In this document: positions 8,485 to 17,656 of the stretch, in pieces | Layout: each line of letters opens with the position of its first letter | Numbering within the stretch: the first letter of the stretch is position 1 | Source of the DNA: Actinomycetota bacterium | GTDB taxonomy: Bacteria > Actinomycetota > Acidimicrobiia > Acidimicrobiales > Ilumatobacteraceae | Length of the DNA stretch: 32,864 nucleotides | Direction: 5' to 3' | Assembly: GCA_009927375.1 (NCBI GenBank) | Contig: RFNE01000201.1 | Span: forward strand, 1-32,864 | Made by a program: the position numbers and the translations under genes | Notes under the pieces: model-generated | The model's input: the letters and a program-made list of their open reading frames with translations, nothing else | Told to the model about the DNA's origin: nothing | Databases searched by the model: none

Positions 8485-9711
8485 ATGAGATCGTCTCGGC
8501 GTCCGTGGTCGCACTTTGCCATTCTCGCCTTCAACATCGGCATCGCAGGCCTGCTCGTCGTCGTTGGTGTCGGCATGCTGTGGGCAGGTCAGCGCTTGAG
8601 CACGCGTCAGGTAGTGAGCATCGGACGTGACCAAAACGCGACACCGGTAGACGACGCCAACATCACTCCGTCAGAGGAATGGAACCTCACGGAGGGCGAT
8701 CTCCAGGCGAAGAACTTCCTGCTCACCGGGTCGGACAACGGAGGTTGCGTCGACCCAGACTCCCCATACGCGGGCGCATTCGGCGACCGAACGAGCTTTG
8801 GTGAGCGAAGCGACACGATCATGATCATTCGCGTCAATCCACTCGACAACCAAGCGGCCTTCCTTTCGTTTCCCCGTGACCTTTGGGTCAAGATCGCTGG
8901 GTCGACGCGATCGAACCGCATCAACACGGCCTTCGAAAGAAAGAATCCGAATCGCCTCATCAACACCATCTACGAGAACTTCGGCATCCCAATCGACCAT
9001 TACGTCAACATCGACTTCTGCGCCTTCAAGGAAATCGTTGATGCGGTGGGTGGCGTGAGCGTGCCCTTCGCATACGAGACTCGCGATCAGAAGACAGGGT
9101 TGTATGTTCCGCGAGCAATGTGCTTCCAGTTTTCCGGCGACCACGCACTCGCCTACGTGCGGTCACGATCCGGCTATTCGTACTTCGACCCCGCCAAGGG
9201 ATCGTGGGTCAAGGACGGCACGTCGGATCTCGGTCGCATCAGCAGACAACAAGACTTCATCCGCCGCGCGATGCAACGCGCGCTCGACAAGGGCTCGAGT
9301 AGCCCTCGAGTCGCCAACGAACTCTTGAACACCGGGTTGCGTAACGTCATCACCGACGACCAACTTTCCGCACTCTCCATGCTCCAATTGGCGCAGGCGA
9401 TGCGCAACATCAATACCTCCAAGATTCCCTCGTACACGATCAGCAGTGCGGGTCAAATGATCGGCGAAGAAGCAGTTCTCATCCCGAAGATTCAAAACGA
9501 CACCATGCGCCAGGTCCTCGCGCTGTTCCAAGGCAAGGCGAGCTTCGGCACGTCGAGCGCAGGCGATGAGGGAGCGCTTGCCCCAAATGCGATCTCCCTG
9601 CGCGCATTCACGACTCGCTCCTCCGCGTCACCGTCGACAACAGTTCCCGCGGTTGCGCCGGAACAAGACACGCTCGGGATCGTGCCCCCAGACGATCCGT
9701 CCTGCCGCTAG
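8485..9711 (+). CDS. LCP (LytR-CpsA-Psr) family cell-envelope glycopolymer ligase
   Basis: N-terminal TM anchor, then NFLLTGSDN...ERSDTIMIIRVNP...FPRDLWV...INTAF and DHALAYVRSR, typical of the LCP catalytic domain. Confidence 0.85.
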   Translation: MRSSRRPWSHFAILAFNIGIAGLLVVVGVGMLWAGQRLSTRQVVSIGRDQNATPVDDANITPSEEWNLTEGDLQAKNFLLTGSDNGGCVDPDSPYAGAFGDRTSFGERSDTIMIIRVNPLDNQAAFLSFPRDLWVKIAGSTRSNRINTAFERKNPNRLINTIYENFGIPIDHYVNIDFCAFKEIVDAVGGVSVPFAYETRDQKTGLYVPRAMCFQFSGDHALAYVRSRSGYSYFDPAKGSWVKDGTSDLGRISRQQDFIRRAMQRALDKGSSSPRVANELLNTGLRNVITDDQLSALSMLQLAQAMRNINTSKIPSYTISSAGQMIGEEAVLIPKIQNDTMRQVLALFQGKASFGTSSAGDEGALAPNAISLRAFTTRSSASPSTTVPAVAPEQDTLGIVPPDDPSCR

Positions 9712-10451
9712 CTGAGAACGCCGAGCATCGCCTCGGGAATGTCCGACGGCCCGCTCACCGTCGCAAACCGCGCACCAACTCGTTGAGAGAACGCTCGCGC
9801 TTCGTCACTGTCATCCGAATGCGCAATGATGACAAGCTCGTCAAGGCACCGCGCGGATTCCTCGGCCGCCTGCGCGGACGTTGAGCGACAATCCGAAAGC
9901 AAGATCGTGATCCTTCGCTGCGCCGTCGATCGGGCGAGTTGCGAAGCTGACTCCCGGAGTGCATCTGCGAGATTCGTCGTACCAAACCCACGTAGCGACA
10001 GCACCGAGGTGACGAGTTGGTCAACGGGAACCTCGTCCGTTTGCGATTTGGCCACTCCAACGTCTCCGCCGAATACCAAGATGCTGTAGTCCGTCGGCTT
10101 GCGGTGGGCAACGGCTGCGGCGGCAAGTGCAGCCGTTGCGAGCGGGGCTCCACCCATCGAACCGCTCCTGTCGATCACAAGACTGATGGCGTGGGTGTTC
10201 TTCGTCCACACGCGATGACGAATCTCATCAATTTCGAGCACACCGGTGGCGCGATGACTCACGAGCGCATCAGTACTCGCATCGATGTCGAATTCGCCAG
10301 AAGAATCACTCGTTCGTTGGCTGACGACGCGTCCGACGCCACGTCGCGTCGGACCCACACGTGAACTCACCTCGATGAAGATTCGTCCGGCCAGTGTTCG
10401 TGCCAACTCACTCAAGGACGGATCGGTCGCAGCAACGAGGTCCGCGAGCAT
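9708..10451 (-). CDS. VWA (von Willebrand factor A) domain protein, partner of the upstream MoxR ATPase
   Basis: MIDAS motif VIDRSGSMGG, then GTTNLADAL and LLSDCRST. The first ATG/GTG/TTG is at 10451, but the frame stays open with protein-like sequence up to 10676 (see findings). Confidence 0.8.
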   Translation of the reverse strand: MLADLVAATDPSLSELARTLAGRIFIEVSSRVGPTRRGVGRVVSQRTSDSSGEFDIDASTDALVSHRATGVLEIDEIRHRVWTKNTHAISLVIDRSGSMGGAPLATAALAAAAVAHRKPTDYSILVFGGDVGVAKSQTDEVPVDQLVTSVLSLRGFGTTNLADALRESASQLARSTAQRRITILLSDCRSTSAQAAEESARCLDELVIIAHSDDSDEARAFSQRVGARFATVSGPSDIPEAMLGVLS

Positions 10452-10618
10452 CGACAGCGCCTCGTCTGGTTCACTCGCAAGTTTCTGTGCGAATGCATCC
10501 TCGTCGAGGACGCCGACCTCGGGCGAGATCTCTTCGAAACCGTCGTGGCCCTCGAGTTCGCGTCGCGAAACGGTGCGCTTGGATGCGCGTGCCGCTGGAG
10601 AGGATGTTGGCGGTCGCT

Positions 10619-11563
10619 CTAGCGACGACTTGGCGCCCCCGTCGGGGCGCTCGCTTTTCCCGAACGGTCTCGTTCGTCAGCCGCAAATTGACGATCCCAC
10701 AGTTCTTCGATGATTGACTCCGCGCTGCGTGTGACGCCCTCACGCACTCTCACGCGACCGCTCAACGACACAACGGCGGCGTCCTTCCCACATGCATCTC
10801 GAGTTGCGGCCGATCCGCGCATTGCAACCAATTGATCAGCGACCATCACCGTGTCGATTGCACCACGAACCGATGAGCCCACGCGAAGTTCAGGGTGGGA
10901 CCTCGTTGCCCTTGCAACCTCGACGACACCGCGAACCCACGCCGAGTCGAAATCCTTCACCGATCCGCGCGTTGCGTGCTCGACGATTGCCACCTCGTCG
11001 TCGAGTGACTGGTACGTCATTGCAACACGGCACACACGATCGGAGATCGCACTCGAAATGCGCGCTGTTCCCACGGCGTCGAAAGGGTTCATCGCTGCAA
11101 CCAGCCGGAATCCATCACCCGCAGTGACCTTCCCGTATCGCGGGATGGTGATCTCTCCCTCGCTCATCACCGTGACGAGAACGTTCAGGGTCTCCTCAGG
11201 AATGCGGTTGATCTCTTCGACGTACAAAAGCGCACCTTCGCGCAACGCCTGGACGAGTGGACCGTCGACGAACGAACTTGCTGCGTACCCCTCGTCAAGC
11301 ACTCGGGCAGGATCGAAGTTTCCGATCAGTCGACTCGGTGTGAGTTCGGCATTGCCCTCGACGAACACGAAGGACACGCCGAACGACTGAGCAACTGACC
11401 GCAAGAGCGTCGACTTGCCGGTTCCGGGAGGGCCCTCGAGAACGACGTGGCGTCGTGCGCCGAGCGCAGCGACGACCAGCTCAACTTCTCGCGTGCGGCC
11501 AACGACACCCTGTGCCGCGGCCGATGCTCGTGAACCTACGTCGCCCGAGCGCTCCTTAGGCAT
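10619..11563 (-). CDS. MoxR-family AAA+ ATPase
   Basis: Walker A GPPGTGKS, Walker B LLYVEEINR, and the MoxR-like core VVGRTREVELVVAAL...LVAAMNP. I chose ATG 11563 (MPKERSGD), which overlaps the last codons of the upstream ADH by 8 nt (ATGCCTAA). The longest ORF starts at 11590. Confidence 0.88.
   Translation of the reverse strand: MPKERSGDVGSRASAAAQGVVGRTREVELVVAALGARRHVVLEGPPGTGKSTLLRSVAQSFGVSFVFVEGNAELTPSRLIGNFDPARVLDEGYAASSFVDGPLVQALREGALLYVEEINRIPEETLNVLVTVMSEGEITIPRYGKVTAGDGFRLVAAMNPFDAVGTARISSAISDRVCRVAMTYQSLDDEVAIVEHATRGSVKDFDSAWVRGVVEVARATRSHPELRVGSSVRGAIDTVMVADQLVAMRGSAATRDACGKDAAVVSLSGRVRVREGVTRSAESIIEELWDRQFAADERDRSGKASAPTGAPSRR
10633..10661 (-). promoter_or_regulatory. Candidate -1 programmed ribosomal frameshift cassette (slippery heptamer + hairpin) at the MoxR/VWA junction
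   Basis: The minus-strand RNA reads G_GGA_AAA in the MoxR zero frame (10661-10655). A 4-nt spacer follows, then GCGCCCC-GACG-GGGGCGC (10650-10633), a 7-bp all-GC stem with a tetraloop. The cassette lies inside the 55-nt window where both frames are open. Confidence 0.25.
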
Positions 11564-12668
11564 ATTTGATGACGCCGCGAATGTTCTCACCTTCGCGCAT
11601 CGCGCGGTAGCCCTCGTTGACTTCCTCGAGTGCGTACTCGCGCGTCACAAGTCCGTTGAGGTCGAGCTGACCTTCACGGAACAAGCCGAGCAACTTCGGA
11701 ATGTCGGAGCGGGGGTTTCCCGAACCGAACAACGAGCCAACCAGTTGCTTTTCCGACAATGTGAGGTCGAGCAGGCTGATGTTGGCCGTCATCTCCATCA
11801 GAGGATGGATGTTCGTGACGACGACACGGCCGCCCTTCGACACTGCGGCCATTGCCTCGCCGATCATCGCACCGTTGCCGACGCCCATCGTCATGATGAC
11901 CTTGTTGGCCATCGTTCCCCACGTCAACTGCTGCACCATCGGGATCGCCTCTGCGAGCGACGCGGCGGTATGTGTTGCACCGAACTCCATCGCCTTTTCG
12001 CGCTTGAACTCGATCGGGTCGACCGCAATGATTCGCTTCGCACCCGCAAGACGTGCGCCCTGCACCGCGTTCGCACCAATGCCACCAATGCCGACGACCA
12101 CAACGGTGTCGCCGGGCTTGACTTCGGCGGCGTACACGCTCGATCCCCAACCGGTGACGACACCGCAACCGAGCAAGCACGCGCGATCAAGCGGAATGTC
12201 CTTCTCGATCTTGATGCAGCTTGCTTCATTCACGACGGTGTGCTCGGCAAAGGTGCCGAGCAGGCACATGATGCCAAGGTCCTTGCCGTCCTTGTGGTGA
12301 CGAGCGGTCTGATCGGAGATCTGCAGACCCGTAGCGAGGAACTGTCCCATGTCGCAGATGTTCTGGTGACCGGTGCTGCAGCTCGGGCAACGACCACACG
12401 AGGGAATGAAACCGAATACGACGTGGTCGCCGGGCTGCAACCACGTGACACTCGAACCGACTTGCTGAACGACACCGGCACCCTCATGCCCTCCGATGAT
12501 CGGAAATGCGGCAGGCAAGTCGCCAGTGACGAGGTGCTCGTCGCTATGGCACATTCCGGAGGCAACGAGCTTGACGAGTACTTCGTTCGGACCGGGAGGA
12601 TCGAGGTCGATTTCTTCAATGCTCCACGGAGCGTTGAGTTCCCACAACACGGCTGCTTTCGTCTTCAC
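11556..12668 (-). CDS. Zn-dependent MDR alcohol dehydrogenase of the mycofactocin-associated (NDMA-dependent, Rxyl_3153-like) type
   Basis: KTKAAVLWELNAPWSIEEIDLDPPGPNEVLVKLVASGMCHSDEH, GHEGAG, structural-Zn CGRCPSCSTGHQNIC, Rossmann GIGGIG. I chose GTG 12668, preceded by GAGGTGGGGG (SD-like), giving the family-typical MKTKAAVLW N-terminus. The longest ORF extends to TTG 12731. Confidence 0.85.
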   Translation of the reverse strand: MKTKAAVLWELNAPWSIEEIDLDPPGPNEVLVKLVASGMCHSDEHLVTGDLPAAFPIIGGHEGAGVVQQVGSSVTWLQPGDHVVFGFIPSCGRCPSCSTGHQNICDMGQFLATGLQISDQTARHHKDGKDLGIMCLLGTFAEHTVVNEASCIKIEKDIPLDRACLLGCGVVTGWGSSVYAAEVKPGDTVVVVGIGGIGANAVQGARLAGAKRIIAVDPIEFKREKAMEFGATHTAASLAEAIPMVQQLTWGTMANKVIMTMGVGNGAMIGEAMAAVSKGGRVVVTNIHPLMEMTANISLLDLTLSEKQLVGSLFGSGNPRSDIPKLLGLFREGQLDLNGLVTREYALEEVNEGYRAMREGENIRGVIKYA

Positions 12669-12784
12669 AATGACCCCCACCTCTGCGCAGTCGCCCACGC
12701 CGTTGTCCTGACTGGGCATATTGTTGCCCAAACCCCTCCAGCGACGCTACCCCGAGGCGCGCCCCATGATTACTGTGGAGTGCA

Positions 12785-12925
12785 ATGGAACCAACAGCAG
12801 CACTCGAGCAGGACCGCATCAGCGACGCTGAGGCCACCGGCACCCGCGATTCGGCACAGCCGCAGATCGTTGAAGAACTTCTCATCGAGGAGATCTCCAT
12901 CGACGGCATGTGCGGCGTGTACTGA
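12785..12925 (+). CDS. mftA: Mycofactocin precursor peptide MftA (46 aa)
   Basis: Absent from the ORF track (under 60 aa). Manual translation: MEPTAALEQDRISDAEATGTRDSAQPQIVEELLIEEISIDGMCGVY-stop. It has the canonical C-terminal IDGMCGVY core. GGAG lies 5 nt upstream of the ATG, and the gene sits immediately upstream of mftB/mftC. Confidence 0.9.
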   Translation: MEPTAALEQDRISDAEATGTRDSAQPQIVEELLIEEISIDGMCGVY

Positions 12926-12943
12926 TCCGCACGACCTTCCACG

Positions 12944-13210
12944 ATGACCCTCACGCTCGACTCGGCGTGTGAACTGCACCCCGACGTCGCCTTGCGACCA
13001 GAGCCCTTCGGCGCACTCGCGTATCACTACGGCAACCGTCGCCTGATCTTCCTCAAGCACCCGGACGTGGTCGCCGTCGTTCGTGATGCCGCAAACCATC
13101 GCTCGCTGCGCGAAGTACTTGTCGAAAACGGCATCGCTGAGTCGCGTTGGCCGTCGTTCATTTCTGCTCTCACGTCGCTCGCGCAGTCCGAGGTGATTCG
13201 TGTCCACTAG
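12944..13210 (+). CDS. mftB: Mycofactocin biosynthesis chaperone MftB (PqqD-like RiPP recognition element)
   Basis: 88-aa ORF with LHPDVALRPEPFGALAYHYGNRRLIFLK, the typical MftB signature. It lies between mftA and the radical SAM gene. Confidence 0.88.
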   Translation: MTLTLDSACELHPDVALRPEPFGALAYHYGNRRLIFLKHPDVVAVVRDAANHRSLREVLVENGIAESRWPSFISALTSLAQSEVIRVH

Positions 13211-14357
13211 TTCGCTCGCTGCACAGATGAAGCAGGGGCTCGACGCCCCCATCTGTCTCACGTGGGAATTGACGTATGCCTGCAATCTCCAGTGCGTCCA
13301 TTGCCTCTCATCGAGTGGCACCCGAGACCCGCGCGAGCTGACGACCGAGCAGGCCAAGGCAGTGCTCGACGAACTTCGTGACCTGCAGGTGTTCTACATC
13401 AACATCGGTGGTGGTGAGCCGATGGTGCGACGCGACTTCTTCGAGTTGCTCGAACATGCGGAGCACTGCAACATCGGCGTCAAGTTCTCCACCAACGGCG
13501 CGTTCATCACTCCAGAGAACGCCCGACGGTTGGCCGCGATGAACTACCTCGACATCCAGATCAGCCTTGACGGCGCAAATCGCGCGACGAACGATCGAGT
13601 TCGTGGCGAAGGTTCGTACGACATTGCCCTTCGTGCAATGGACAACCTGCGGGATGCGAGTTTTGGTCGGTTCAAGATCTCGGTCGTGATGACGCGAGAA
13701 AATGTCTCCCAACTGGATGAATTCAAGGCGCTTGCCGACTCTTACGGAGCCCAACTGCGCATCACCCGATTACGACCCGCTGGTCGCGGCGCAGACACGT
13801 GGAATGAGCTCCACCCGACTGCGGCCCAACAGCGAGTGATCTACGACTGGCTCATGCACCATGGAGAAGACGTCTTGACCGGAGACTCGTTCTTCCACTT
13901 GAACGCATTCGGTGACGCACTCCCCGGACTCAACTTGTGCGGCGCGGGTCGCGTGGTCTGTCTCATCGATCCGCTCGGTGATGTCTATGCATGCCCGTTC
14001 GTCATCCATGATGAGTTCAAGGCGGGCAGCGTGCTCGAAGATGGAGGATTCACGCACGTCTGGAAATCGAGCGACCTCTTCACCTCATTGCGCGAGCCCG
14101 AATCGCCTGGAGCATGCGCATCGTGCGGGAGCTACGACGCATGCCAAGGCGGATGCATGGCAGCGAAGTTCTTCACCGGGCTTCCCCTCGATGGTCCAGA
14201 CCCCGAATGCGTGAGCGGGCACGGTGAGCACGCACTCTCGTCCGCTGGTGCTGCCCCTCGCCCATCGATGGATCACTCGAAGCCAGTGCGCCTCACCGTG
14301 AAGGCTCGCCGAAGTCCAGTTCTCGTCACTCACCACAGCGGAGGGAGTCCATCATGA
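13200..14357 (+). CDS. mftC: Mycofactocin radical SAM maturase MftC (SPASM domain)
   Basis: GLDAPICLTWELTYACNLQCVHC (CxxxCxxC radical SAM cluster), plus the C-terminal SPASM cysteines CGAGR...YACPF...CASCGSYDACQGGCMAAKFFTGLPLDGPDPEC. GTG start overlaps mftB by 11 nt. Confidence 0.93.
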   Translation: MSTSSLAAQMKQGLDAPICLTWELTYACNLQCVHCLSSSGTRDPRELTTEQAKAVLDELRDLQVFYINIGGGEPMVRRDFFELLEHAEHCNIGVKFSTNGAFITPENARRLAAMNYLDIQISLDGANRATNDRVRGEGSYDIALRAMDNLRDASFGRFKISVVMTRENVSQLDEFKALADSYGAQLRITRLRPAGRGADTWNELHPTAAQQRVIYDWLMHHGEDVLTGDSFFHLNAFGDALPGLNLCGAGRVVCLIDPLGDVYACPFVIHDEFKAGSVLEDGGFTHVWKSSDLFTSLREPESPGACASCGSYDACQGGCMAAKFFTGLPLDGPDPECVSGHGEHALSSAGAAPRPSMDHSKPVRLTVKARRSPVLVTHHSGGSPS

Positions 14358-15037
14358 ACGGTGTCTCGACAGGTGGTGTCATCGCCCTTCTCCTCCTTGG
14401 ATATTTCCTCGGAACGTTCCCGAGTGCACTGATCGTCGCGAAGCGCGGTGGCATCGACGTCACCGCCGAGGGTTCGGGAAATCCGGGCACGTCGAACGTC
14501 GTGCGCCTACTCGGCTGGCGTTATGGCGCAGTCGTGATGATTCTCGACATCGGCAAGGGTGCGCTCGCAGTTGGCGCTGCGGCGATCGTTGCCGGCGATC
14601 GCGTGACCCAACTCGGATATCTCTGCGGCTATGCGGCGGTCATCGGACATACGTTCCCAATCACGCGCAAGTTCGTCGGTGGTAAGGGTGTCGCGGCTGG
14701 TGGCGGTGCGATGTTCGTGCTCTACCCACTCATGAGCCTCGTGTTGTGCAGTTCGTGGTTCGTCATCAGGAAGGTCACCGGGAAGTCCTCGGTTGCATCG
14801 CTCGTGATCACCATCTGCGTTCCGTTGTACATCGTGTTCTTCCGCGACAATCGCTGGGAACTCCTCGATGCTCTCGGTCTCGTCGTGTTGATCATCATCC
14901 GACACACGGCGAACATCAAGCGACTTGGTCGCGCGAGGAAAACGCGGCCTAAGGCCCGAGGGCGTCCATGGCCACCTTCATCACCGACTTCTTCGACTCG
15001 CTCAAGGAGTTCTCGTCTTCGCCGTGGTTCTACGTGA
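14354..15037 (+). CDS. plsY: Acyl-phosphate:glycerol-3-phosphate acyltransferase PlsY
   Basis: GSGNPGTSNV, DIGKGALAV, GHTFPI, GGKGVAAGGG and IIRHTANIKRL match the PlsY conserved blocks. ATGA overlap with the mftC stop, and a strong SD GGAGGGAG 6 nt upstream. The Arg/Ser/Pro-rich 3' tail overlaps dedA by 70 nt. Confidence 0.85.
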   Translation: MNGVSTGGVIALLLLGYFLGTFPSALIVAKRGGIDVTAEGSGNPGTSNVVRLLGWRYGAVVMILDIGKGALAVGAAAIVAGDRVTQLGYLCGYAAVIGHTFPITRKFVGGKGVAAGGGAMFVLYPLMSLVLCSSWFVIRKVTGKSSVASLVITICVPLYIVFFRDNRWELLDALGLVVLIIIRHTANIKRLGRARKTRPKARGRPWPPSSPTSSTRSRSSRLRRGST

Positions 15038-15588
15038 TCATCTACGTGATCGCGGTGCTGGACTCCGTCTTCCCCGTCGTACCGAGCGAAACACTCGTGA
15101 TCATCGGCGGAGTGTCCGCGGGTCTCGGTGATCTCTCGATCACGTTCGTCGTGCTCGCCGCTGGTCTCGGAGCATTCACCGGAGACAACATGAGTTACCT
15201 GATCGGACGCAGAGCGAGTGGAGCGATCACGCGAAGATACGAACGAACGGAGAAGGGCCGGCGACGGCTCCAAACGGTCATCAACCAAATCCACGAACGC
15301 GGCGGCTTGCTGCTCATCACCGCGCGATTCATCCCTGGAGGGCGGACGATTCTCACGTTGTCGTGTGGCATTACCCGTCAAGAACGTCGGTGGTACATGG
15401 GCTGGATCGCTGCCGCAGCAACGATCTGGGCGCTCTACGCATCACTACTCGGCTTCATCGGTGGCAAGACGTTCGAGGAGAATCACACACTCGCGTTCGT
15501 GGTCGCATTTGTTGCTGCCGTTTCGGTGACGGTGGTCATCGAAATCATTCGCGCGGTCCTGAAGAAGATCCGCAAGCGAACGCCGTGA
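14968..15588 (+). CDS. DedA / VTT-domain family membrane protein
   Basis: FYVIIYVIAVLDSVFPVVPSETLVIIGG...GDNMSYLIGRR...LLITARFIPGGRT, the typical DedA re-entrant loop signatures. Several TM helices. Confidence 0.85.
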   Translation: MATFITDFFDSLKEFSSSPWFYVIIYVIAVLDSVFPVVPSETLVIIGGVSAGLGDLSITFVVLAAGLGAFTGDNMSYLIGRRASGAITRRYERTEKGRRRLQTVINQIHERGGLLLITARFIPGGRTILTLSCGITRQERRWYMGWIAAAATIWALYASLLGFIGGKTFEENHTLAFVVAFVAAVSVTVVIEIIRAVLKKIRKRTP

Positions 15589-16271
15589 AGTTTGCAACGC
15601 GTCGACTTCGTGAGTTGACGTCTGCGAAAGTGTCCTCGATCGAGCGACCGATCCTTGCGATTCCCGTCGGATCGTGCGAGCAGCACGGACCTCACCTCCC
15701 ACTCGGTACCGACACGATCATCGCCGAGGCGTTGTGTGACGCCCTCGCATCACTCAATGCTCGGATCGTGGTCAGTCCATCGCTCACGATCACTTCGAGC
15801 GGTGAACACGCAGGCTTTCCTGGCACGCTCTCGATCGGAGGTCCGGCGACGTCATCGACGATCATCGAGCTCGTGCGCTCTGCCGACTGGGCAACGGGTG
15901 TCGTACTCGTGAACGGTCACGGTGGGAACGCTTCACCAGTGAGTGATGCCGTTGCGATACTTCGAGCGGAGTCGCGAGTCGTCACCGACTGGTGGCCACG
16001 CATCGACGGTGGTGACGCGCATGCCGGGCACATTGAAACCTCACTCATGTTGCACCTCGCAGCCGATCTCGTGGACATGGAGCGGGCGGAAGTCGGCAAC
16101 ACCCAACCACTTCGTGAGATTGCCGACTCACTTCGCTCCGGCGGTCTCCGAGCAGTCTCGTCGAATGGAGTTCTCGGCGATCCCCGACATGCATCACGAG
16201 AAGTCGGTGAGAAGTTGATGGCGGACCTGGTCAGTCAACTCAACCACCACGTCGCGCTGCATCACCCATGA
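15585..16271 (+). CDS. mftE: Mycofactocin precursor peptidase MftE (creatininase-fold)
   Basis: PILAIPVGSCEQHGPHLPLGTD...SSGEHAGFPGTLSI...VNGHGGN...GDAHAGHIETS. GTG 15585 overlaps the dedA stop (GTGA). The track ORF 15363..16271 has an implausible N-terminal extension inside dedA. Confidence 0.88.
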   Translation: MKFATRRLRELTSAKVSSIERPILAIPVGSCEQHGPHLPLGTDTIIAEALCDALASLNARIVVSPSLTITSSGEHAGFPGTLSIGGPATSSTIIELVRSADWATGVVLVNGHGGNASPVSDAVAILRAESRVVTDWWPRIDGGDAHAGHIETSLMLHLAADLVDMERAEVGNTQPLREIADSLRSGGLRAVSSNGVLGDPRHASREVGEKLMADLVSQLNHHVALHHP

Positions 16272-17656
16272 CTCCAGATCCGTCGTTCGTTTGCGATTCG
16301 TCATGGCATCGCTACTCGGACGGCACCACCCTCGTTGCCGGATCTCCGCTTGCGGTGTTTTCCCTCAGCGAAGCCGGACGTGACGTCGCTCGAGCACTCG
16401 AAGCTGGTGAGCCGCTCCCCGACTTCCATCGACCACTGACTTCTCGACTAGCAGCAGCTGGTGCAATTCACCCTCTTGCGTCCGAACTCGAAGAGTCGCT
16501 CGAGACATTGCTGACAGTCGTCATTCCCGCGCACGTTTCAGATGACGCCGGAATCGCGCGACTGACACGTTTAATCGAGGAACTCAGCGTGCAGTGTTCA
16601 GTCATCGTCGTCGATGATGCGTCGCCGCAGGCGTTCATGATTCCCAATGCCGCAAAGATCGTCAGGTTGGACACGAACCGCGGACCAGCTGTAGCACGAA
16701 ACGCAGGACTCGAAATGGTGACCACGCCGTTCGTGGCGTTCATCGACAGTGATGTCACCGAGTGTGGTTCAGCCCTGCCCCTCCTCGTTGCAACATGTTC
16801 ACTGGACGGTGTCGGACTCGCCGCACCACGGGTTGCAAGCCGACCAGGAGTAACGCGACTTGCTCGATACGAGGAGCGATTCTCTCCGCTCGATCTCGGT
16901 TCGGAACCCGGCCGCGTCGCTCCTGGCTCACGAATCTCCTACGTCCCGTCGGCGATGTGGGTCGTGAGGACGGAGGTTGCAAAGTCCCTCGGCGGCTTTG
17001 ATGCCGAGATGCGAGTCGGTGAGGACGTCGACTTTGTCTGGCGACTCGTCCGCGCAGGTTCGACGGCGAGATACGAGCCACGTGCCGTCGTGCACCACGA
17101 TCCCCGTCCGACGCTCAGAGCGCTCATGAGACAGCGATTCTTCTACGGAGGCTCCGTCGGTCCGCTCTCCATTCGACATCCATCGCTCCTTCGACCGCTC
17201 AAGACGAGCTGGCATTCGGTTGCGCTGTGGGTGTTCTTCTTCGCCGGTCTTGCACCGATCAGTGCGCTACTCGGGATCTACACGTTCGTCGGTCTCGCTC
17301 GCCGACTTCGCCACCTCGACCACGGAGTTCGCGAAGCATTGCGTCTCGTCGTTCGTGGGCATTGGTCCGCACTTTCCTCGATCGTCCGTGCCCTTCGACG
17401 CGAGTGGATACCCCTTACGCTCCTGTGCCTTATGTTCGGTGGTTACCTCGGTGCGCTCGCGCTCGCCGTCTTGTTCATTCCATCCATCGTGGACTATTTC
17501 CGTGGCTCCAAACGGCTCGATCCGGTCACGTTTGTTGTCCTGCGCATCCTCGACGATGCGTCATATGGAATGGGTGCGGTCACGTCATGCGTCCGCAACC
17601 GAACGATCAGACCGGTTGTACCTGATCTGCGGACGTGGCGCGCAAACGTGCACTGA
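16268..17656 (+). CDS. mftF: Mycofactocin glycosyltransferase MftF (GT2 domain plus C-terminal TM region)
   Basis: VVIPAHVSDD...VIVVDDASP...RGPAVARNAGL...FIDSDV...GEDVDFVWR, followed by hydrophobic helices. ATGA overlap with the mftE stop. Confidence 0.88.
   Translation: MTPDPSFVCDSSWHRYSDGTTLVAGSPLAVFSLSEAGRDVARALEAGEPLPDFHRPLTSRLAAAGAIHPLASELEESLETLLTVVIPAHVSDDAGIARLTRLIEELSVQCSVIVVDDASPQAFMIPNAAKIVRLDTNRGPAVARNAGLEMVTTPFVAFIDSDVTECGSALPLLVATCSLDGVGLAAPRVASRPGVTRLARYEERFSPLDLGSEPGRVAPGSRISYVPSAMWVVRTEVAKSLGGFDAEMRVGEDVDFVWRLVRAGSTARYEPRAVVHHDPRPTLRALMRQRFFYGGSVGPLSIRHPSLLRPLKTSWHSVALWVFFFAGLAPISALLGIYTFVGLARRLRHLDHGVREALRLVVRGHWSALSSIVRALRREWIPLTLLCLMFGGYLGALALAVLFIPSIVDYFRGSKRLDPVTFVVLRILDDASYGMGAVTSCVRNRTIRPVVPDLRTWRANVH

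Follow-up and report, generated by a model that had tools for sequence, protein, structure and literature searches.

Why is a mycofactocin-type alcohol dehydrogenase (ADH) encoded in overlapping frames with a MoxR-class AAA+ ATPase and a protein with a von Willebrand factor A (VWA) domain? The question is raised by contig RFNE01000201.1 of an Ilumatobacteraceae genome (Actinomycetota; Acidimicrobiia), of which positions 1 to 32,864 were analysed and are called the window here. A sequence-only reading of this DNA had proposed that the MoxR/VWA pair is a dedicated assembly or remodelling factor for the neighbouring dehydrogenase, acting for example in metal or nucleotide loading, and that dehydrogenase, chaperone and cofactor pathway form one functional module. 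Pairs of the NorQ/CbbQ type are ring ATPases that, via an adaptor with a VWA metal-ion-dependent adhesion site (MIDAS), remodel one folded enzyme and insert or release an active-site ligand. Here, we describe that the MoxR/VWA pair follows mycofactocin-dependent dehydrogenases across at least two classes of Actinomycetota. We consider it somewhat probable that the locus encodes, in one transcription unit, a mycofactocin-dependent nicotinoprotein ADH together with a dedicated NorQ/CbbQ-like AAA+/VWA remodelling chaperone, and that MoxR and VWA are joined by frameshifting.

The pair follows mycofactocin-dependent dehydrogenases

ADH, MoxR and VWA are all read from the minus strand (Table 1, window numbering). 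The assignment of the dehydrogenase as a mycofactocin-type zinc ADH was correct: it matches the NCBIfam model TIGR03989 (Rxyl_3153 family) over its full length with 567.4 bits at a cut-off of 440, and its translation shows catalytic and structural zinc motifs. TIGR03989, the "NDMA-dependent alcohol dehydrogenase" (NDMA, N,N-dimethyl-4-nitrosoaniline), is by Haft's definition confined to mycofactocin genomes (PMC3023750), and the ADH gene is indeed adjoined by mftA, mftB, mftC, mftE and mftF. The 8-nt overlap described before, in which the ADH stop lies within the first codons of MoxR, was read again directly from the sequence. The MoxR ATG is at 11563-11561, and the sole alternative start, GTG 11590, would only lengthen the overlap with ADH.

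The product of the second gene matches Pfam AAA_5 (PF07728) with 96.8 bits (cut-off 22), and its Walker A (GPPGTGKS), Walker B (YVEE) and sensor residues are invariant in alignment A2; the motif residues are likewise invariant in alignment A4. By sequence, the nearest solved structures include midasin AAA modules, CbbQ and NorQ. Other families of AAA+/VWA proteins were considered and rejected. The Mg_chelatase model reaches 33.5 bits over residues 111-163 only, with AAA_5 as the best match; the scores of the chelatase equivalogs are far below their cut-offs, and neither cobN nor chlH is found in any locus viewed, which speaks against a ChlI/ChlD chelatase. Membership in the MoxR-vWA ternary conflict systems is likewise not indicated, the bpMoxR model (PF20030) giving 38 bits over residues 15-136 and the neighbours being metabolic. 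A seemingly longer MoxR of 470 aa (P0123) is an artefact of an internal duplication.

A gene-neighbourhood survey, as the sequence-only reading had suggested, gave a clear answer. Among the Ilumatobacteraceae-type loci with at least 1.3 kb of sequence upstream of MoxR, all from Acidimicrobiia, 60 of 61 have a TIGR03989-type ADH gene immediately ahead of MoxR in the same orientation, and in 27 of those loci two ADH genes precede MoxR in tandem. The tandem paralogues, seen in many of the loci L022-L080 (e.g. L025:6825-9112), share about 75-80% and 55-60% of their residues with the ADH of the window, where it is a single gene. MftC is encoded in 40 of the 49 ADH-linked loci with at least 5 kb upstream; an LCP-family (LytR-CpsA-Psr) gene and leuS are also syntenic in the Ilumatobacteraceae-type loci. 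Beyond these loci, ADH is followed by a single MoxR-VWA fusion gene in isolates of Pseudonocardiales (Alloactinosynnema) and Micrococcales (Leekyejoonella) and on three metagenome contigs of unassigned taxon. The association is, therefore, clearly not confined to this genome.

A related pair accompanies short-chain dehydrogenases/reductases (SDRs), which are unrelated in fold to the medium-chain (MDR) family of the window ADH. Among plasmids, the best matches to the window MoxR were from Rhodococcus qingshengii and R. ruber (44-46% identity), all others being at most 30% identical; a second plasmid search, for Mno-linked paralogues, returned just the two Rhodococcus records again, and a tblastn search of plasmids with the VWA query gave nothing at E 1e-8. 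On both Rhodococcus plasmids MoxR lies directly after or between genes for "mycofactocin-coupled SDRs", with no mft genes nearby. These SDRs reach 367-396 bits against TIGR03971 (cut-off 300), and all ten SDRs that were run against NCBIfam exceed this cut-off. The order SDR(s)-MoxR-VWA was also found in Mycolicibacterium, Pseudonocardia, Williamsia and a Geodermatophilaceae isolate. Taking isolates, the two plasmid loci and 80 metagenome loci together, 58 SDR-clade loci have at least 1 kb upstream, and 55 of these have a same-strand homologue of the TIGR03971 SDRs directly upstream of MoxR. Many are ordered mftB-mftC-SDR(1-5)-MoxR-VWA-...-mftE-mftF.

In the MoxR tree the whole subfamily is separated from generic MoxR proteins with a support of 100/100; the next-closest MoxRs, at no more than 30% identity, stand in unrelated DUF4129-MoxR-DUF58 contexts. 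Every SDR-linked sequence falls into one clade (100/100). The ADH-linked sequences of Alloactinosynnema and Leekyejoonella (L171, L172), which belong to the class Actinomycetes, are outside this clade and group with Acidimicrobiia. Therefore, the chaperone tracks the fold of the neighbouring dehydrogenase and not the taxonomy of the host.

The VWA frame is most likely entered by a −1 frameshift

The VWA gene had been described as following MoxR in an overlapping frame. The overlap exists: an open frame for VWA extends from 10676 past the MoxR stop (10619-10621), an overlap of 58 nt. VWA is, however, not a normally initiated gene, since its conserved N-terminus has no start codon. There is no ATG, GTG or TTG in the VWA frame before 10451, and this first start lies 25 codons downstream of a conserved SPEVG motif. 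About 45 residues upstream of the ATG at 10451 (SRRELxRHxxFExVSPEVGxLDE...) are conserved among homologues of 282-313 aa, which cover 93-97% of the extended VWA frame. The domain itself is not in doubt, with 31.4 bits for VWA_2, 29.6 for VWA_CoxE and 27.2 for VWA, all above the Pfam gathering scores, and the MIDAS motif DxSxS...T...D (D169, S171, S173, T233/T234, D262) is invariant in alignment A1.

How, then, is the conserved N-terminus translated? Upstream of the MoxR stop there is a heptamer, G_GGA_AAA, in the X_XXY_YYZ phase of the MoxR frame, followed by a GC-rich hairpin. We compared the window with 76 related loci, one genome per species. All 77 loci have VWA in the −1 frame with respect to MoxR; this frame runs uninterrupted through the MoxR stop, and the two overlap by 40 nt or more. 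The phased GGGAAAA is present in the window and in 73 of the 76 relatives, the other three having AAAAAAA (A_AAA_AAA), and it is always 34-52 nt ahead of the MoxR stop. A canonical start before SPEVG is absent in 22 of the 77 loci, and in three more the first start is just one codon ahead of the motif. The heptamer is not accounted for by the protein sequence, because from the codon usage of these genes (GGA for 16% of Gly, AAA for 29% of Lys) it is expected at only about 1.4% of Gly-Lys dipeptides, and it encodes one of 404 other such dipeptides in the same genes, which served as control. The hairpin core GCCCC/GGGGC begins 6 nt past the heptamer and is found in nearly all of 75 unique sequences if longer loops are included; single-sequence folds recover it in most of them, with a mean minimum free energy of −14 kcal/mol over 36 nt. 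A search of Rfam found neither a known frameshift element nor a selenocysteine insertion sequence in the window or at a UGA junction of the SDR-linked clade (see below).

A programmed −1 frameshift would thus most likely yield two products, MoxR and a MoxR-VWA fusion, as indicated by the start-less conserved N-terminus, the phased heptamer, the hairpin, the recurrence of these features in relatives and the existence of single-frame fusions. The predicted fusion would have 618 aa, reading MoxR 1-303 up to ...DRSGK and then SERPDGG... to the end of VWA, with the junction peptide ...SGKSERPDGGAK. This has a practical side: annotation pipelines split or truncate such genes, and in the present case a VWA protein of 247 aa was called where one of 618 aa is probably made.

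Natural fusions and an in-frame UGA in the sister clade

With the predicted product of 618 aa as query, natural MoxR-VWA proteins encoded by a single open reading frame (ORF) were retrieved. They form at least 120 clusters (a lower bound), have 590-660 aa and are 45-58% identical to the query over 91-97% of its length. They are collinear with the predicted product across the junction; ...EGKGERPD... in the closest of them corresponds to ...SGKSERPD... as predicted for the window. The AlphaFold model of this closest fusion (58% identical; mean predicted local distance difference test score 90.4) has an AAA+ part (residues 1-293), a helical adaptor and a VWA part (419-626), and the junction falls into a disordered linker (294-315). 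With the AAA+ part of this model as query, Foldseek placed NorQ and CbbQ nearest, with template-modelling (TM) scores, normalised to the target, of 0.78-0.84 (NorQ, 9qh4 and 9qhd, E 1e-17, TM 0.83; CbbQ, 6l1q and 5c3c, TM 0.78-0.82).

Seven of the eight natural-fusion contexts viewed have an MDR-type ADH gene (Pfam ADH_N and ADH_zinc_N) directly upstream. Two of the loci (L169, L170) are Ilumatobacteraceae-type. In Alloactinosynnema sp. L-07 the order is mftE-D-C-B-A, aldehyde dehydrogenase, regulator and then, divergently, ADH-fusion; in Leekyejoonella antrihumi it is mftF-SDR-mftD-C-B-A and then, again divergently, ADH-fusion. Hence, the ADH-fusion unit faces away from mft in both, next to mftA in the latter and with two genes between in the former. 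The six ADHs of L169-L172 match TIGR03989 at 520-551 bits. On the three metagenome contigs (L174, L177, L178) the ADH-fusion unit is placed variously relative to mft, and the ADHs were identified by Pfam domains only. One of them (L174:1-6651) carries, besides ADH-fusion and mftABC, two flavoproteins of the old yellow enzyme type and genes for electron-transfer flavoprotein (ETF) and ETF:quinone oxidoreductase, possibly an alternative route for re-oxidation of mycofactocin. The single in-frame ORF of L169 (8001-9884) has retained both heptamer (phased GGGAAAA) and hairpin. In this gene, slipping by −1 would lead to a shorter protein, with a polarity as in dnaX, but a 1-nt assembly difference could equally account for this. 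The entry listed as a fusion for L170 (P0268) is probably a frame-disturbed gene call.

In the SDR-linked clade the junction is of another kind. The MoxR stop is TGA in 88 of 88 loci (L081-L168; e.g. L086:7952-7954, L084:8027-8029), and in 66 of the 67 loci in which VWA is visible it continues in the same frame, open from the next codon. The context Pro-Gly-TGA-AG[AG] is invariant over 60 unique junctions, the Arg codon never being CGN, and it is carried by Rhodococcus, Mycolicibacterium, Pseudonocardia, Williamsia and related soil-metagenome contigs. Past the stop, the peptide R-x-V-x-A-D-S-P shows coding-type conservation, with entropies of 0.71, 0.52 and 1.29 at codon positions 1, 2 and 3. 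Just 20 of 61 unique sequences have a start codon before the D-S-P motif. Downstream of the UGA we found no conserved structure, and in Rfam no selenocysteine insertion sequence at the junction. Selenocysteine was rejected, as there is no conserved hairpin after the UGA and natural fusions of the SDR-clade type have E, H or G at this position, never Cys. The most economical reading is leaky termination that would give a MoxR-VWA fusion here as well, which makes the sister clade a candidate for programmed UGA readthrough in Actinomycetes. Programmed readthrough of a stop codon is rare in cellular bacterial genes, and this would be one instance if true. One orthologous family would then arrive at the same two-isoform output by −1 frameshifting, UGA readthrough or outright fusion. 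In Geodermatophilaceae bacterium NBWT11 (L088:7973-9183) the VWA frame breaks about 60 codons past the UGA and no VWA gene is called; this may be a pseudogene or a sequencing error.

A proposed function and its alternatives

How could such a pair serve a dehydrogenase? Most ribosomes on MoxR would stop at 10619 and release the 314-aa ATPase, whereas a fraction, aided by the downstream hairpin, would slip by −1 at G_GGA_AAA and make the 618-aa MoxR-linker-VWA chain. Rings that contain both products would then have few adaptor arms, in a constant number set by recoding. By analogy with NorQ/NorD and CbbQ/CbbO, the MIDAS of VWA would dock on the dehydrogenase, and ATP hydrolysis would open the enzyme, so that the buried, non-exchangeable NAD(P)(H) could be exchanged or an inactive state reset; the pair would be an "activase".

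We favour the nucleotide over the metal as the part that would be remodelled, because the zinc-containing MDR and the metal-free SDR clients share neither fold nor metal. What both families have in common is a buried, non-exchangeable NAD(P)(H) and the dependence on mycofactocin (PMC3023750, PMC5264612), and it has been stated that NADH release from these SDRs "would require a large conformational change" (PMC5264612). Of the earlier proposal, the idea of one module of dehydrogenase, chaperone and cofactor pathway is strongly supported by the comparative evidence; its metal-loading option is disfavoured, since the sister clade serves metal-free SDRs, and a role in nucleotide loading needs correction, the nucleotide being the likelier target but primary loading with NAD not requiring the pair (see below). 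A tentative and rather doubtful extension is that the whole subfamily is a general "nicotinoprotein activase" for MDR, SDR and perhaps iron-containing (Fe-)ADH enzymes, its subunit ratio set by three interchangeable junctions, i.e. a −1 frameshift in the Ilumatobacteraceae-type Acidimicrobiia, an in-frame UGA followed by AGA or AGG that is read through in the SDR clade, and true fusion.

Several observations weigh against the favoured interpretation. Many enzymes of TIGR03989 and TIGR03971, among them those of M. tuberculosis, are not known to have a MoxR/VWA pair beside them. A fusion in Pseudonocardia sp. WMMC193 (L173) also has no adjacent dehydrogenase. This gene (L173:8001-9812) sits beside PIG-L and COX1 genes, and the many similar Pseudonocardia fusions in the match list may be a third group with a different or distant client. 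In the SDR clade the pair is often found amid the mft biosynthetic genes, as would be equally expected of a role in cofactor biosynthesis or handling. About two thirds of the relatives have an in-frame codon from which VWA could be started separately. Rare edited transcripts could escape RNA contigs, although these and the DNA contigs show no indel at the proposed site. Finally, NAD is already bound to mycobacterial TIGR03971 SDRs when these are purified from E. coli (PMC5264612); therefore, primary loading with the cofactor does not depend on the pair.

Would the pair rather serve mycofactocin itself, in its maturation, trafficking or docking, for example by assisting MftC/MftB or the hand-over to partner enzymes? 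The position between mftC and mftE/mftF in many SDR-clade loci, the divergence from mftA in the window and the frequency of MftC (in 16 of 29 loci with at least 5 kb upstream, in addition to the 40 of 49 above) would fit. We consider this unlikely all the same: the two Rhodococcus plasmids, L083, L086 and L178 keep the dehydrogenase neighbour with no mft gene in view, the pair is always on the same strand downstream of the dehydrogenase genes, often with overlapping stop and start codons, and the MoxR clades track the fold of the dehydrogenase. Moreover, the canonical mftA-F clusters of M. tuberculosis and M. smegmatis make mycofactocin and are not known to have an internal pair (cf. PMC3023750). 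A chaperone that inserts zinc into ADH, as NorQ/NorD does for iron or CoxD/CoxE for copper, is very unlikely. It is suggested by the nearest solved relatives, NorQ/NorD, which insert metal, and by the catalytic and structural zinc motifs of ADH, but zinc ADHs generally load their metal unaided, and the sister clade, with MoxR proteins 44-49% identical, serves TIGR03971 SDRs that have no metal site.

The favoured reading could also fail in its recoding part. If there were no frameshift, VWA would be made separately, either truncated from the ATG at 10451 or via a non-canonical start such as GTT, and would pair with MoxR non-covalently, as in NorQ/NorD. Gene callers do annotate two genes, in-frame ATG, GTG or TTG codons upstream of SPEVG occur in the two thirds of relatives just mentioned, and the closest N-terminally extended relative starts with MSRRELERH... 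where the window reads VSRRELEGH, i.e. at the GTT position. However, the start position is not conserved and is missing or one codon before the motif in the 22 plus three loci given above, all 77 loci keep the −1 frame open over the MoxR stop, the synonymous sites of heptamer and hairpin are frozen, collinear single-ORF fusions are common, and the sister clade retains an in-frame UGA with coding-type conservation directly after it. Separate synthesis is, in our judgement, improbable. The lowest probability, a very small one, goes to inherited synteny without functional link or to a MoxR-vWA conflict or defence system. LCP and leuS are likewise syntenic in the Ilumatobacteraceae loci and the bpMoxR match, albeit weak, exists, but the adjacency of ADH, MoxR and VWA persists without LCP and leuS in L171, L172, L174, L177 and L178; a search with PADLOC gave matches at the level of the P-loop only and no defence system, a third "effector" gene is absent, and the MoxR clades are client-specific. 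The cross-order survey has already largely refuted this possibility.

Organisation and transcription of the locus

The sequence-only reading had taken the three genes as one unit that is read away from mftA. A single RNA contig from a riverine metatranscriptome, free of indels, covers 10258-11597, i.e. the 3' end of ADH, the whole of MoxR and the 5' part of VWA. It supports co-transcription of all three, DNA contamination of such libraries being possible; only the view of VWA as an ordinary third gene has to be given up. The depth of the ADH contig is about four times that of MoxR/VWA. In run X17 the ADH contig has a depth of roughly 90-175x, and of at most 5 upstream of 12716 and over mftA; an RNA contig terminates in adapter sequence at 12716. 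The 5' end of the ADH mRNA may, therefore, be about 48 nt ahead of the GTG, which sits behind GAGGTGGGGG; if true, the longer ADH starts at TTG (12731) and ATG (12718) are excluded.

The shared control region between ADH and mftA, estimated before at about 116 nt, has exactly this length; neither a consensus of a sigma-70-like promoter nor an inverted repeat or palindrome was detected in it. At the other end, the VWA stop (TAG, 9708-9710) overlaps by 4 nt with the end of the convergent LCP-family gene (8485-9711), and no terminator-like hairpin was found between the two.

The mft cluster (12785..17656) matches the NCBIfam equivalogs TIGR03967, TIGR03962, TIGR03964 and TIGR03965, each above its cut-off; mftD was not found within the cluster in the window. 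A glycerol-3-phosphate acyltransferase gene (plsY) lies inside the cluster, a layout common to most of the closest Ilumatobacteraceae relatives.

Table 1 Features of the dehydrogenase-MoxR/VWA locus and the adjoining mft cluster (window coordinates).
Feature	Position	Strand	Remarks
VWA/MIDAS reading frame	9708..10676	-	−1 relative to MoxR; via the heptamer would give the 618-aa MoxR-VWA fusion
MoxR-class AAA+ ATPase (AAA_5, NorQ/CbbQ-like)	10619..11563	-	zero-frame product of 314 aa
GC-rich hairpin GCGCCCC-GACG-GGGGCGC	10633..10650	-	downstream of heptamer
Slippery heptamer G_GGA_AAA	10655..10661	-	X_XXY_YYZ phase in MoxR frame; proposed −1 site
NDMA-dependent (nicotinoprotein-type) Zn ADH, TIGR03989	11556..12668	-	GTG start; TAA stop 11556-11558
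ADH stop/MoxR start overlap, ATGCCTAA	11556..11563	-	8 nt
Divergent ADH/mftA spacer	12669..12784	.	116 nt
mftA	12785-12925	+	peptide ends IDGMCGVY
mftB	12944-13210	+	
mftC	13200-14357	+	
plsY	14354-15037	+	
mftE	15363-16271	+	
mftF	16268-17656	+	

Relation to known systems

The association of mycofactocin dehydrogenases with MoxR/VWA has, in the searchable literature, been mentioned incidentally but not analysed, and the searchable mycofactocin literature describes no helper protein. Our data suggest a dedicated and hitherto unstudied helper machine for mycofactocin-dependent dehydrogenases. The pair is a concrete candidate for keeping nicotinoproteins with non-exchangeable NAD(P)H active, or for rescuing them when the nucleotide is damaged or caught in the wrong redox state.

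Similar gene sets have been noted in passing. In M. smegmatis, MSMEG_6242 (Mno/Mdo), MSMEG_6241 ("ATPase AAA") and MSMEG_6240 are co-regulated (PMC7174638, PMC8406134, PMC6529628), and MSMEG_6241 rises alongside MSMEG_6242 in mft mutants (PMC7174638, PMC8406134); in R. qingshengii IGTS8, MoxR, CoxE and ThcE have been mentioned as one operon (PMC13689224). By the descriptions in these papers, expression of a mycofactocin-dependent ADH of the NDMA type goes together with that of an AAA ATPase and one more protein there as well. The dehydrogenase of these systems, however, has the Fe-ADH (type III) fold, and no function was assigned to its neighbours.

The pair has much in common with NorQ/NorD and CbbQ/CbbO: the same AAA_5 fold, a VWA partner with an intact MIDAS, and genes that adjoin one specific client enzyme. 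The sequence identity of MoxR to NorQ/CbbQ is only about 25%, and the VWA partner has about 300 aa with a helical adaptor, whereas NorD and CbbO have roughly 600-770 aa. Unlike in these systems, the client would be a mycofactocin-dependent nicotinoprotein dehydrogenase, MDR or SDR, and ATPase and VWA are predicted to be in one chain, by recoding or true fusion, instead of in two proteins. If true, MoxR/VWA chaperone pairs would extend to a new class of clients, with an architecture that is unusual for its recoding.

For the architecture there is a precedent in fs-chlD of the magnesium and cobalt chelatases (Antonov et al. 2013, PMC3711429), where a short AAA+ protein and a −1-frameshifted AAA+-linker-VWA protein arise from one mRNA, as we propose here. 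In both cases relatives have true fusions, and annotation splits the gene in two (PMC3711429). The evidence for the predicted frameshift follows the same chain that established fs-chlD, but for another AAA+ family: fs-chlD is of the ChlI/BchI family, whereas the ATPase of the window is AAA_5/MoxR and lacks CobN or ChlH as a partner. As the slippery site, fs-chlD has a poly-A run, in contrast to G_GGA_AAA with a hairpin here; the hosts are Pseudomonas, Burkholderia, Delftia, Herpetosiphon and methanogens (PMC3711429) on the one side and Actinomycetota on the other, and in the present family a sister clade has an in-frame UGA in place of the frameshift. If true, ours would be the second AAA+/VWA family on the very short list of cellular genes that set a stoichiometry by programmed frameshifting. 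Tau/gamma of E. coli dnaX is a further parallel (PMC3711429), in which a −1 slip at a phased heptamer followed by a hairpin sets the ratio of two AAA+ isoforms in one ring. There, the frameshift shortens the protein; the frameshift proposed here would lengthen it.

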